Source: Escherichia coli
Lineage (GTDB): Bacteria > Pseudomonadota > Gammaproteobacteria > Enterobacterales > Enterobacteriaceae
Length of the DNA stretch: 64,000 bases
NCBI RefSeq assembly: GCF_024298765.1
Contig: NZ_CP101210.1
Reading direction: 5' to 3' (one strand)
Shown here: in pieces, positions 2,065-35,256 of the stretch
How positions within the stretch are numbered: the first letter of the stretch is position 1
Layout of the letters: every line of letters begins with the position of its first letter
Program-made: the position numbers and the translations under genes
The notes under the pieces: generated by a model
Databases searched by the model: none
What the model was told of the DNA's origin: nothing
The model's input: the letters and a program-made list of their open reading frames with translations, nothing else

Positions 2065-2289
2065 TTCATGGAGTTTGTTTACCATTCTGTTTTTCTTAAA
2101 AGTGAGTGTCTGTGCGGTCACTAAACTCGGTAATAAAGCAGTTCATTGCAGGATAAGAAGCGTTTGGTTGTGTCGTTTTACCGTAAGAACCGACCGCCGT
2201 ATGTAGCCATTAAGCCAGTATTGGTAACGTAGGTGCCCACCTTTTCAAACTGGTGGACGCCTGTTATGGAGCAAAAACATTATCCGCAG

Positions 2290-2440
2290 AACCCCGCAGA
2301 TCATTTTCAAATGAGTTAAACTTCAAATGGTTAAACTGGTTTTGCAACCAGGAGCCTCTGTTGCCCGTATTGCCCGGGAACACGATATCAATGATAACCT
2401 CCTGTTCAAATGGCTCAGACTCTGGCAGAACGTAAGGTAA
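2290..2440 (+). mobile_element. IS66-family orf1 (TnpA) fragment, remnant
   Basis: Translation ...ARIAREHDINDNLLFKWLRLWQN... matches the conserved IAREN-GINDN-LLFKW region of the IS66 orf1 copies at 23.6 kb and 26.6 kb; no intact ORF. Confidence 0.5.
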
Positions 2441-3290
2441 AGGGAGATGAAAAAGGCAATAGCAGAACTGAGTGACAGTGAAACCATTCTGGCGTACAGG
2501 GTTGGATGGTGAAACTGATAAAAAACCCCCTCTGAAATTCTGTCAGAGGGGCTAGTCAATAAGGGAATAATATTCAACATGAAGATGTCTTCTGGGAATG
2601 TTTATATAGCAAATGCTTTCACTCCGGTAATTAATTTCCGTGATTAACTGCTTTCGATCAATAAAGGAATTGCAAAAGTGTGATCTTGTTCACGACATCG
2701 TGGATAATAATATGCCTGATGTCTGAATCCGGAAACAGTGCTCTGGCGGGTTTCATGTGAAGTTGACGGATAAAAAATCCGCACGACCAGACAGACGTGC
2801 GGTTTACGAAATTCGTAACAAGAGGCTTTTCTACGGATCACGTGGTGCGTGCCACGTGAAATTTTTGTAGCGCAAAATGTGTGATGTGTAAATACAAGGA
2901 AGGAAAAAAGTTAAATCGGTGGAAGTCCATACCTGCCACGTGTACGTCTGCATTCCTCGTTTTGAACAGAATTCTCACCAGACATCGTGAATTTCTCATT
3001 CAATCATCAGAGATATTAACCAGGATTTTTATTGTTTTGTGATATCAGCAGTGCAGGTATACAGACATTAAAGTAATCAGGTTTATTATAACCACCTTTA
3101 CAAAGTTGTATGTGTTTATAATTTAAGGATTTTAATGCCAGTCGTTTTCTGCTGCTTAAATTGAGGTCGCATATTATACACAATAATATTCCTGGCATTA
3201 TTAAATTAATAAAAGAGGATTCTTATCACTGTATTTTTGCTCCGCACTACCGTTCTGGCTGGTGAAATAATAATACAGGAGAATAACAGA

Positions 3291-4550
3291 ATGCTTAAAA
3301 GACGTGATGCTTTTTTAAAGAAAAGCGCGCTGGCAGTGAGTGTGGCCCTGCTGCTCTCATCTCAGGCTTTGGCTCATAAAACAATTACTGATTCAACGGC
3401 GGGTATTATCTGGATTGATAATGGCACTCAGTCACTTGAAAGTGCAAGTGTGATTGACAGAAATGGAAATGCTAACGATGGTGGTAGTGTTACTGGAAAA
3501 AACTTTGCTGTTGGTTCCGATGCAATAATTTGGGATGCGGATAAATCCATGGCAACAGGAAATAAGACAGCTGTTTTTAATGCAGACAACAGTGTCGCTC
3601 TGGGGTATGGCTCTCAGGTGAATGGAGAAAGCAATGTACTTTCTGTAGGGGCCGGTCCTTCAGGATATGGATTTTCAGTTGATGGTGCACCGGAAACCCG
3701 CCGGATTATAAATGTTTCAGATGGTGTTAAGGATAGTGATGCGGCCACAAAAGGACAGATGGACAACGCCATTGCAGGTGCTGTACGGGTGTCGGGGGAT
3801 GCCCTGCGCGGTGAGATAGGAGCTGTCTACCGTGATGCTGTTTCTCATACTGACAGTCAGGTCACAGCAGTACGTGATGAACTGAAGGCAGAGGGAGACA
3901 GTCTGCGCGGTGAGATAGGCGGTGTATACAGAGATGCCCGTGCTCATACTGACAGTCAGGTTACAGCAGTACGTGATGAACTCAGCAGGGATATTATTGC
4001 AGGCACATCGGCAGCGGTGGCGTATACGGATGCATCTTCTCTTGCTCTTCAGGATGAAATAAAAGAAAAAGCGGATGAAACAGTTCAGGTTTCCCGGGCT
4101 TATACAGATAAAAGTGTACGGGATGCCCGTAAAGAAGCGAAAAGCCAGGCAGAACATCTCAGCGATGTGCTTGTGAAGAACAGGGCGCAGACGGATGCAG
4201 CAATAGCCTCAAATACAGCAGCGATAAGGAATAACAGTCATCGTCTGGATTTGACGGAAGCCTGGCAGAAGATGGCGACAGAGAGAATGAATAATATGCA
4301 GGAGCAGATTAAAGAGAACCGGAAGGAGTTAAGGGAGAGTGCAGCCCAGAGCGCGGCACTGGCAGGTCTTTTCCAGCCATACAGTGTTGGAAAATTTAAC
4401 GCGACAGCAGCCGTTGGTGGTTACCGTGATGAGCAGGCCATTGCGGTGGGCGTGGGCTACCGTTTCACAGAGAATGTGGCAGGAAAAGTTGCAGTTGCTG
4501 CAGGTGGGTCATCCGCATCGTGGAATGCTGGTGTGAATTTTGAGTTCTGA
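3291..4550 (+). CDS. Trimeric autotransporter adhesin (YadA-like C-terminal membrane anchor)
   Basis: Start chosen at ATG 3291 (AGGAG 10 nt upstream; signal peptide [28 protein letters not shown]) rather than ORF-track 3237. Coiled-coil stalk with tandem repeats; C-terminal ...[35 protein letters not shown] resembles the YadA-type beta-barrel anchor. Confidence 0.75.
3804..3990 (+). repeat. Tandem direct repeat, about 99-bp unit x2 (33-aa stalk repeat [24 protein letters not shown])
   Basis: ctgcgcggtgagatagg... recurs at 3804 and 3903 with near-identical downstream sequence; lies in-frame within the adhesin stalk. Confidence 0.7.
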
Positions 4551-4611
4551 CAGGTCAGGATTTAGATATCTGTCCCGGGGGGAGTCCCCCGGGATATAAT
4601 GAGGTACAGAG

Positions 4612-33010: not shown

Positions 33011-33204
33011 CCAACGCCATTCATGGCCATATCAATGATTTTCTGGTGCGTACCGGGTTGAGAAGCGGTGTAAGTGAACTGCAGTTGCCATGTTTTACGG
33101 CAGTGAGAGCAGAGATAGCGCTGATGTCCGGCGGTGCTTTTGCCGTTACGCACCACCCCGTCAGTAGCTGAACAGGAGGGACAGCTGATAGAAACAGAAG
33201 CCAC
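32929..33204 (-). CDS. insA: IS1 InsA
   Basis: 91 aa; zinc-finger N-terminus (CPSC...CSHC) and HTH, matches IS1 InsA. Confidence 0.9.
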
Positions 33205-33677
33205 TGGAGCACCTCAAAAACACCATCATACACTAAATCAGTAAGTTGGCAGCATCACCCGTTCATTTTCTGAGCCTGTAAAACATGTGGTGATATAGTC
33301 TGAGAGCATAAAAGTTGAGATTCTGTGTATCAAGTCCTGTCTTGGCACCGAATGAATATTGCTTACGAAGCCCCTTCATGCTTTCCTTGAGAACAATAAT
33401 TTTATCTTTATGTGAATCTCATTTTTTATAATGATGTCAGATGATTGAAATGCTAAATTATATCTGAATCAACTTTTCCTTTGCTAAAGGTATAGAAATA
33501 ACTGCAAGGCTGTATTTTGTAATTGCCAATTTAAAAATGTCAATTTGTTTTTAATTATGTTTTTGTAATAAGTTTGAAGACACAAAAAAATAATATAATA
33601 ACAAAAATCCTCCAGCCTTGTAGGCCAGAGGATAAAATACTTAATTGAGGAAAACATCAGGGAAAAGTATTTCTGAC

Positions 33678-34862
33678 TTAACTTTCCCGGCTGGAGAGTG
33701 AATCAATGTAATCAGCGTACCATTGCATCATTTCACGGCGGCCATCGAGATACAGGGCATGATTATAGGTACCCCTGATGGAATTTTTATCCACATGAGC
33801 TAACTGCATTTCAATCCAGGCGGAGTTAAAGCCTTGTTCATGCAGAATTGTACTCATGGTGTGTCTGAAACCATGCCCTGTGAGTCTTCCCTTATATCCA
33901 AGTAATTCAATTACTTGGTTAATGCTTTCCTTACTAATTGGTTTGCGGGGATCATTTCTACCGATAAAGACTAGGGGATGATGTTTTGAGATTGGTTCAA
34001 GCTGCTTAAATAGCATAATAACCTGCTCAGAGAGCGGCACAATATGAGGTCGCTTCATCTTCATTACTTCTGCCGGGATCTCCCACAATTTTGTCTCAAA
34101 ATCGATATCTTCCCAGCGTGCAAAACGCAGTTCTTGTGTTCGTACGCCGGTTAACATAATGATCTGAGTAGCTGTCTTAGTGATTATACTTCCGGTATAA
34201 CCCGCCAGATCGTTGAGGAAGTGGGGAAGTTCATTAGCAGTAAGAAAGGGAAAATGTACTTTTTTCGGTGTAGCTAAAGCACTGGCAAGATCGGGGGCTG
34301 GGTTATAGTCTGCCCGGCCAGTAACAATTGCATAGCGGAACACCTCACCACAGCGCTGGCGTACCTTGCGCATTTTCTCCAGAGCTCCACGTTTTTCCAT
34401 TTTACGCAGTGCTTCCAGTAACTCCATTGGTTTGATTTCGGCAATAGGGCGCTTGCCAATGTAGGGAAAAATGTCTTTTTCAAAGGTATCAATGATTTCA
34501 TCACGATAGCGTAATGACCACCGATCGGCTTTTGACTGGTGCCATTCGCGAGCAATAGCCTCGAACGTATTTTTCAGACTTATTTGCTGCGCGATTTTTT
34601 CTTCCTTTTTTGCCTCCCCTGGATCGCCTCCAGCAGCGAGGAGTTTCCTGGCTTCACTGCGTTTCTCGCGAGCATCGGCTAGCGTTACATCGGGGTATAC
34701 GCCAATAGAAAGCATCTTTTCTTTACCAGCAAAGCGGTACTTCATGCGCCAGTATTTAGAACCATTAGTGTTAATCAGTAGATACATACCGCCGCCATCA
34801 GCAAGCTTATAGGGTTTGTCTTTGGGTTTTGCGGTTTTCACTTTGATATCGGTTAATGCCAT
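33678..34862 (-). CDS. P4-type tyrosine integrase adjacent to selC
   Basis: 394 aa; N-terminus MALTDIKVKTAKPKDKPYKLADGGGMYLLINTNGSKYWRMKYRF typical of P4-family island integrases; C-terminal catalytic region (HGFRHT...LAHVDKNSIRGTYNHALYLDGRREMMQWYADY). Confidence 0.9.
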   Translation of the reverse strand: MALTDIKVKTAKPKDKPYKLADGGGMYLLINTNGSKYWRMKYRFAGKEKMLSIGVYPDVTLADAREKRSEARKLLAAGGDPGEAKKEEKIAQQISLKNTFEAIAREWHQSKADRWSLRYRDEIIDTFEKDIFPYIGKRPIAEIKPMELLEALRKMEKRGALEKMRKVRQRCGEVFRYAIVTGRADYNPAPDLASALATPKKVHFPFLTANELPHFLNDLAGYTGSIITKTATQIIMLTGVRTQELRFARWEDIDFETKLWEIPAEVMKMKRPHIVPLSEQVIMLFKQLEPISKHHPLVFIGRNDPRKPISKESINQVIELLGYKGRLTGHGFRHTMSTILHEQGFNSAWIEMQLAHVDKNSIRGTYNHALYLDGRREMMQWYADYIDSLSSRES

Positions 34863-35161
34863 GACATCCTCCGGCTTTTGATGAATTCATGTTCCTGAGG
34901 GGGATTTCTGCCAGTAACTAACCTGATACCCCCAATACACCCCTTGTATAACAAAGATGTTGTTAAAAGCCGTTGTTATGTATCACATTTTTCCTATTAT
35001 GGGGGTGCTTGTATTTCAATAGGAAATAACACCCCCTAAAGTACCCCCAAAAGAAACTTGATACGGGGTGAAGTAGGTTGACCTCAGGATACAAATAAAT
35101 ACTGATATACAAGGGATTAGAAGAGATTTATTGACATTGGGAGAGTTCAGAAGAGGTAAAC

Positions 35162-35256
35162 TGGCGGAAGATCACAGGAGTCGAACCTGCCCGGGACCGC
35201 TGGCGGCCCCAACTGGATTTGAAGTCCAGCCGCCTCACCGGAGACGACGATCTTCC
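35162..35256 (-). tRNA. selC: tRNA-Sec (selenocysteine tRNA)
   Basis: 95-nt reverse complement matches the E. coli selC sequence (GGAAGATCGTCGTCTCCGGTGAGGCGGCTGGACTTCAAATCCAGTTGGGGCCGCCAGCGGTCCCGGGCAGGTTCGACTCCTGTGATCTTCCGCCA). Confidence 0.9.

Follow-up and report, generated by a model that had tools for sequence, protein, structure and literature searches.

In the DNA analysed here, a stretch of 64,000 nucleotides of Escherichia coli (contig NZ_CP101210.1; referred to below as the window), positions 1 to 35161 are very probably one end of a genomic island, decayed and of mosaic structure, that has inserted into the tRNA-Sec gene (selC) at its 3' end; this is the selC-proximal end, and the island has a proposed history of five steps. 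The object is a selC island, i.e., an element of a textbook kind; the window's island is not named in the literature found, and no paper was found that names or analyses it.

Insertion site, integrase and boundaries

The selC gene is intact and is located at 35162..35256 on the minus strand (ARAGORN; Rfam match at 35166..35256, 83.8 bits), its 3' end on the 35162 side forming the island junction. It is the only tRNA gene found in the window by ARAGORN, and an Rfam scan of the 64 kb returned tRNA-Sec and no other match. The 26-mer TGGCGGAAGATCACAGGAGTCGAACC has a single occurrence, at 35162..35187, at the 3' end of tRNA-Sec, and the 16-bp core of the attachment site (att), GATCACAGGAGTCGAA, lies within selC at 35170..35185. 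At a distance of 300 bp from selC is an intact gene for a P4-type tyrosine integrase (33678..34862, minus strand; 394 aa), the placement that the initial annotation of this DNA had described. The product includes the domains Arm-DNA-bind_3 (PF13356), Phage_int_M (PF22022) and Phage_integrase (PF00589), each with an E value below 1e-27, scores 317 bits against the NCBIfam model PRK09692, the cut-off of which is 434, and is identical (WP_001218900.1) in E. coli strains 104 and QL57EC. The first step of the proposed history would be the recombination of an element into the 3' end of selC by this P4-type integrase, with regeneration of the tRNA gene and a 16-bp repeat left at the far end; the site is observed directly, and the mechanism is deduced from it.

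To the right of selC are the core genes yicJ and yicI. To the left, the extent of the island can be read from E. coli strain 104 (chicken, China), to which window 1..20543 shows 1 mismatch in 20,543 bp and window 23243..36345 shows 1 mismatch in 13,103 bp, an ISCro1 copy at 20544..23242 being the sole structural difference. On this near-identical DNA the RefSeq annotation gives accessory DNA only, from selC leftwards to window base 1. Neither setC, yicL nor nlpA is annotated there, in agreement with the initial statement that K-12 core is absent left of selC. The left limit of 2200 proposed at that time was arbitrary, as window 1..2200, which carries a split transketolase gene, is part of the same island.

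In strain 104 the island measures 85.7 kb from selC to the yicL side, where its end is marked by a 16-bp repeat of the 3' end of selC, GATCACAGGAGTCGAA, at L003 10651-10666, between a small open reading frame (ORF) and a DUF4942 gene. This distal repeat beside yicL is the kind of att site whose search had been recommended; it is exact over 16 bp but short of 4 tRNA bases, and the same 16-mer pair also flanks the selC island of E. coli B, which is 21 kb long. No second copy of the selC 3' end is present inside the window, and the distal boundary was correctly placed beyond it. Between yicL and the distal att of strain 104 (L003 9543..10650) there is about 1.1 kb with an ORF of 498 bp and no setC; the position of this ORF is occupied by setC in E. 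coli B and by a truncated setC in QL57EC.

Distribution and composition

The distribution of the island was established in a collection of 5,426 complete E. coli genomes, presence being defined as at least 80% of a stretch held in one place. Window 1-25000 is present in 42 of these genomes, 25001-40000 in 67, and 13800-35161 in 71, which refutes conserved core. The island is thus carried by about 1% of complete E. coli genomes, and the exact island is already in dozens of public ones with automatic annotation. Many of the carriers are from chicken or other birds, some are human and one is from a dog; the cargo-bearing genomes number 134. The integrase region alone is far commoner (at least 80% of the region in 1,234 genomes), and its version in O157, associated with the LEE (locus of enterocyte effacement), is about 89% identical in DNA sequence. 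The G+C content of the island is 48.1%, as against 53.2% for the core right of yicH, with minima in the autotransporter gene (40.6%) and the integrase region (41.2%). An intact tRNA gene, an adjacent integrase, a patchy presence and a deviant composition were therefore all found, and flanking repeats can be deduced for the window's own genome from strain 104. The island reading stands because the DNA is not conserved core, and because an att repeat and a deviation in composition both exist.

Parts native to the selC site

The closest named relative of the present island is AGI-3, the selC island of avian pathogenic E. coli (APEC) BEN2908 (PMC4807369, PMC3349570), which shares the integrase end only. 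Its locus was taken from NZ_LR740776.1, and the selC-proximal 39 kb (L010) were compared. The likeness comprises the site at the selC 3' end, an integrase differing from that of the window in 2 of 394 residues, and an organisation that is modular and rich in insertion sequences (IS), in AGI-3 within an avian pathogenic strain. From 33260 through selC, yicJI and the frz operon the DNA is 99.07% identical, and homology with AGI-3, as with E. coli B, starts exactly at the right end of an IS1 copy (33260). In contrast, the TPR protein, the LacI/MFS/GH31 module (aec-35 to aec-37), the GH32 gene cluster and Ag43 of AGI-3 are all absent from the window; the GH32-containing cluster is presumably the fos locus of PMC3325963. 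Conversely, the cargo of the window is absent from the selC-proximal 39 kb of AGI-3, IS sequences being the only shared stretches.

A minimal selC island of about 7.5 kb is found in QL57EC (swine), in the order truncated setC, IS1, autotransporter, IS1, integrase and selC. In addition to the identical integrase protein, it has an IS1A at the same site beside the integrase, differing in 1 of 768 bases, and its autotransporter segment is 99.93% identical to window 28436..32491, although inverted. E. coli B (DL21) has a selC island of 21 kb, in which the autotransporter is 98.7% identical and likewise inverted relative to the window. Both islands have the 16-bp att repeat and the integrase in common with the present one, and they differ from it in being far smaller and lacking its cargo, and in having setC present (E. 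coli B) or truncated (QL57EC). Because the integrase, IS1A and autotransporter make up the minimal selC island in other strains, these three are old residents of the selC site. The second step is shown by this comparison: native to selC are the integrase, a neighbouring IS1A insertion and the autotransporter of 1,165 aa, a combination seen elsewhere as the 7.5-kb minimal island.

Other selC islands that were reviewed include the LEE, SHI-2, PAI I536, Tia-PAI and the GI-selC of LEE-negative Shiga toxin-producing E. coli (PMC7545054). They have the same site and integrase family, but a wholly different cargo: the annotation of the near-identical DNA of strain 104 lists no genes for type III secretion, intimin, Tir, aerobactin, hemolysin or tia. 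APEC O1 has a tkt1 island (PMC3349570), which was considered and set aside as a different transketolase island.

The same cargo at pheU and leuX

The remaining cargo is found in islands at two other tRNA genes. In the pheU island of APEC IMT5155, and independently in VTB96815v, an island of about 97 kb holds the same block of about 56 kb, namely the phosphotransferase system (PTS)/transketolase module, adhesins, PliC, NanE/PTS, ugpB, the heme-type receptor, the IS66 cluster, the autotransporter, IS1, fec and pgt. Over window 13800..33259 the identity is 99.7%. This island differs, however, in its tRNA-Phe site, in having another integrase, in a circularly permuted order, in a chimeric IS1 and in a backbone gene doubled as chimeras. 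Its order is backbone, ireA, PTS/transketolase, cargo, autotransporter, IS1, fec operon, IS cluster, pgt operon, type I restriction system, lactate genes, integrase and tRNA-Phe. The order at selC in strain 104 is hlyE, IS1, fec, IS cluster, pgt, a backbone gene for a hypothetical protein ('hyp'), ProQ/FinO, PTS/transketolase, cargo, autotransporter, IS1 and integrase. The two orders are circular permutations of each other.

The leuX island of BEN2908 carries window 1..24349 as 25 kb of cargo with 99.3-99.9% identity, its flanking backbone genes being 90-96% identical. Its integrase, in contrast, is just 44% identical to that of the window, and it has no autotransporter/IS1/fec continuation. 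A fossil leuX att was looked for in the selC island and the window, and chance 11-14-mers only were found; the cargo was not brought in with a leuX att. The arrangement of fec and IS1F is one that we take to be the leuX-associated KpLE2 element of K-12.

The third step, likewise shown by comparison, concerns the remaining cargo, the modules of which also occur in pheU and leuX islands. Those inside the window are PTS/transketolase, the YadA-like adhesin, PliC, NanE/PTS, the phytase-like esterase, ugpB and the heme-type receptor; those outside it, in strain 104, are the fec and pgt operons. The island can accordingly be called a patchwork, as it was from the start, with integrase, IS1 and autotransporter native to selC and the other cargo shared with pheU and leuX islands.

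Crossover scars and the circle model

In strain 104, all of this remaining cargo belongs to a unit of about 56 kb between direct IS1 repeats, IS1F beside fec and IS1A beside the integrase. The right IS1 retains the autotransporter flank and the left IS1 the fec flank, whereas the single IS1 of the pheU island carries both. In both pheU-island genomes alike, this copy corresponds over positions 1-641 to the selC-side IS1A copy and over 642-768 to the fec-side IS1F copy, the exceptions being position 652 (in both genomes) and position 275 (in IMT5155 only). The right IS1 of strain 104 corresponds to the IS1A that QL57EC has at this site (767 of 768 positions), and the left one is of the IS1F type, which adjoins fecI in 2,565 genomes. 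Because the selC-side and fec-side copies match natural variants in other genomes, the pheU-island IS1 is the recombinant copy.

A second scar is present in the 'hyp' backbone gene (about 500 bp), which has one copy in strain 104, between pgtA and ProQ, and two in IMT5155. Of the two in IMT5155, the one that follows pgtA agrees fully with strain 104 as far as L002 11430 and diverges from there on; the one that precedes ProQ differs as far as 11423, after which there is 1 mismatch in the next 1,577 bases. The two chimeras are the reciprocal products of a single crossover at L002 11424-11430.

From these reciprocal chimeras we propose as the fourth step that, in a selC island like that of the window, crossing-over between IS1A and IS1F released about 56 kb as a circle. 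In the IMT5155 lineage, this circle would have entered the pheU island in Campbell fashion, by a single crossover in the backbone gene of about 500 bp. Passage from selC by way of a circle to pheU seems to be the simplest reading of the scars. An IS1 cointegrate model was rejected, as the outer flanks CGCAGTCAA and CGTTCATTT show no duplication. The fifth step, which is directly seen, was the later arrival of IS2 and ISCro1, each with a target duplication.

In strain 104 the left IS1 is adjoined by an hlyE gene (L003 36762..38649), and the same hlyE-IS1 junction is found in unrelated genomes of 4.5-5.2 Mb. This hlyE-IS1 module may thus be a capture from another chromosomal location.

Several points weigh against the proposed history. 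What is said of the distal 50 kb, of the left IS1 and of the att repeat is taken from strain 104, as none of them is in the window. The autotransporter is inverted relative to QL57EC and E. coli B, and there is no second IS1 at its other end. The window's combination of IS2 and ISCro1 is found at 100% identity in no genome of the collection: XDL has both elements but is 99.5% identical to the window; in the strain 104 group the identity is 100%, but ISCro1 is missing. The predicted product of excision, in which hlyE, IS1 and the integrase are joined, was absent from the 5,426 genomes when searched with a synthetic query of 1,568 nt; the same query showed that other genomes have an IS1 next to the selC integrase at precisely this site. 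Finally, the proposed history does not account for the first arrival of the pheU/leuX-type modules (fec, pgt, PTS) at selC.

Direction of transfer and mobility

The same scars can be read in the opposite direction. An island of the IMT5155 pheU type (or a leuX island) would then be ancestral, and a circle formed through its two 'hyp' copies would have entered the selC island by way of the resident IS1. The pattern of flanks and the circular permutation are symmetrical and fit either direction; moreover, the occurrence of fec/IS1F beside fecI in 2,565 genomes means that this arrangement is not specific to selC, and BEN2908 has the cargo at leuX. However, transfer from pheU to selC predicts chimeric IS1 copies at selC and a natural variant at pheU, and the opposite is observed. 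The selC-side copy equals the same-site IS1A of QL57EC at 767 of 768 positions, the fec-side copy is of the IS1F type of the 2,565 genomes, and the pheU copy is IS1A to 641 and IS1F from 642. Furthermore, the autotransporter that was carried along is otherwise a gene of selC islands. Because two natural IS1 variants would have to be chimeras, this direction is the less likely one, and we consider it improbable.

That the island is an integrative conjugative or mobilisable element still capable of transferring itself is very unlikely. An intact integrase, a bounding direct repeat and near-identical cargo in distant lineages would fit such an element, but no genes for a relaxase, type IV secretion or a coupling protein are annotated in the whole strain 104 island, which is, moreover, full of IS elements and pseudogenes and has a distal repeat of just 16 bp that is 4 tRNA bases short. 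As no conjugation or phage genes are annotated, the island should be unable to move itself between cells.

A degraded prophage or P4-like satellite is the least credible alternative of all. The integrase is of the P4 type, there are PHROGs families that match the YadA-like protein, the DUF4198 protein, the TonB receptor and the autotransporter (the family of the last being labelled 'tail fiber protein proximal subunit'), and CP4-57-like genes, for the inovirus Gp2 family, antirestriction and CbtA/CbeA, are present in the distal backbone of strain 104. However, genes for capsid, terminase, portal, tail, lysis or replication are annotated nowhere in the 86-kb island of strain 104, the 'tail fiber' protein has the PATR, AC_1 and beta-barrel architecture of an autotransporter, and the PHROG matches are to cargo-type and not to virion proteins. 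The initial statement that genes for type III secretion and phage structure are lacking agrees with the annotation of the strain 104 island, where there are none.

Returning to the movement from selC to pheU, it is possible, and we suggest it tentatively, that the stretch of about 56 kb from IS1F to IS1A is a translocatable unit that leaves selC as a circle, enters other tRNA islands by homologous recombination and spreads a package of adhesin, iron-heme, sugar and lysozyme-inhibitor functions among poultry-associated E. coli as an adaptation to birds. The island itself changes nothing, selC islands being textbook objects and the present one being in dozens of public genomes. It has a modest value as a worked example in which the scars of reciprocal crossovers, in IS1 and in a backbone gene of 500 bp, are readable at base resolution; they indicate that an accessory block of 56 kb moved between two tRNA-linked islands without dedicated transfer machinery.

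Cargo genes

The cargo was identified by NCBIfam, Pfam and PDB sequence search, and the cargo genes listed in the initial annotation are all present and intact. By homology, their products would supply adhesion, heme and iron uptake, additional sugar uptake and protection from c-type lysozyme. The left end of the window enters the island within a module of LacI, ascorbate-family PTS and transketolase genes that begins left of the window; its tail is the split transketolase (288..1118 and 1111..2064, plus strand), followed by a transposase remnant (2253..2428, plus strand), so that the whole of 1..2428 belongs to the island. Two genes on the plus strand come next: a YadA-like trimeric autotransporter (3291..4550; 419 aa) with a signal peptide and YadA anchor, and a protein with a sigma-factor-like helix-turn-helix (4612..5067).

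The product of the gene at 5424..5762 (minus strand) is a PliC-type inhibitor of c-type lysozyme; it aligns over 89 residues with PDB 3OE3, the Salmonella PliC, at an E value of 7e-40. This gene is present in just 174 of the 5,426 complete genomes, and of the matching records in an evenly spaced sample of 40, about half are from chicken or poultry. The poultry-linked PliC is a possible factor in host adaptation. Plasmids account for 30 of the places at which the PliC gene is found, and the copies sampled from them show about 88% identity.

A sub-module for amino sugars follows. It is composed of a NanE-like ManNAc-6-P 2-epimerase (6267..6956, minus strand), a glucose-family PTS IIBC (6956..8512, minus strand) and a regulator of the RpiR/MurR family (8678..9502, plus strand). 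The NanE-like/PTS IIBC/RpiR sub-module (6178..9655) is found on its own, at an identity of about 96%, in many genomes without the remainder of the island, e.g., O104:H4. Next to it is a protein of 447 aa of the 'Esterase-like activity of phytase' family (9659..11002, minus strand), whose 90%-identity cluster also contains Serratia proteins.

The ugpB gene (13833..15149, minus strand) encodes a substrate-binding protein that scores 932 bits to the UgpB equivalog; it is an orphan, with no adjacent ugpAEC. A debris stretch (15350..17326) follows, with a PemK/MazF toxin fragment (15350..15505, plus strand) and a small ORF. The TonB-dependent receptor (17493..19463, plus strand) belongs to the heme/hemoglobin family (414 bits, cut-off 317), and after it is a DUF4198 protein (19482..20273, plus strand).

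The autotransporter gene proper (28988..32485, plus strand; segment 28436..32491) encodes 1165 aa with a signal peptide, PATR repeats, an AC_1 autochaperone and a beta-barrel, i.e., a type Va autotransporter. It had been described as of the AIDA type, which is valid as a class label only: it scores 275 bits against the AIDA-I model, whose cut-off is 1200, the match covers the C-terminal half alone, and the full-length protein does not qualify. A family of PHROGs, phrog_15824, matches this protein end to end (2231 bits); its 'tail fiber' label was rejected on domain architecture and looks like a mis-annotation from a prophage prediction that took in island DNA.

Insertion sequences

The IS elements named at the outset, an IS1, an IS2 and degraded IS110, IS2-like and IS3 elements, are all present, and there is an IS91 remnant besides. 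IS2 (11112..12442, minus strand) is complete and has a 5-bp duplication, CGGCT; its site is unoccupied in BEN2908, IMT5155 and VTB97379v. Pseudogenes are found for an IS110-family transposase (12697..13698, minus strand), a degraded IS2-like DDE transposase (16283..17326, plus strand) and an IS3-family element (26861..28096, plus strand), the last followed by the IS91-family remnant (28158..28403, plus strand). The IS1 of the IS1A type (32492..33259, plus strand, with the transposase on the minus strand; 768 bp) is the right boundary of the IS1-bounded unit of about 56 kb and has no target-site duplication.

Three copies of IS66 had been counted, of which two are complete and one is truncated. 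The first complete copy is ISCro1, an IS66-family element at 20544..23242 on the minus strand, with an 8-bp duplication, AAAGATAT; absent from strain 104, it occupies this site also in XDL and in IMT5155, and BEN2908 has a degraded copy. The truncated element (23468..24349, plus strand) has tnpA (23560..23940) and tnpB (23937..24284) only and is cut by the second complete one (24350..26860, minus strand), which has tnpA at 26350..26775, tnpB at 26003..26353 and tnpC at 24380..25972, ends in GTAAGCG/CGCTTAC, and lacks a target-site duplication. Several solo terminal repeats of the IS66 type (GTAAGCG...) are located just outside the complete elements, at 20387..20560 and 23395..23475. The DNA here, downstream of the DUF4198 gene, seems to be a target that the IS66 family has hit repeatedly.

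Neighbouring region

A second accessory insertion is located between yicI and yicH, at 39301..46538. It is an operon of 8 genes, for a BglG-family antiterminator, the fructose-type PTS components IIA, IIB and IIC, two aldolases, a ROK kinase and an isomerase of the lyxose/mannose type. It corresponds to the frz operon of BEN2908, with 99% identity, and is found in neither E. coli B nor QL57EC. Its G+C content is 48.7%, the first 2 kb being near 41%. Further to the right, yicG and yicC are adjacent (59895..60093), and dinD, which intervenes in E. coli B, is absent in the window and in strain 104.

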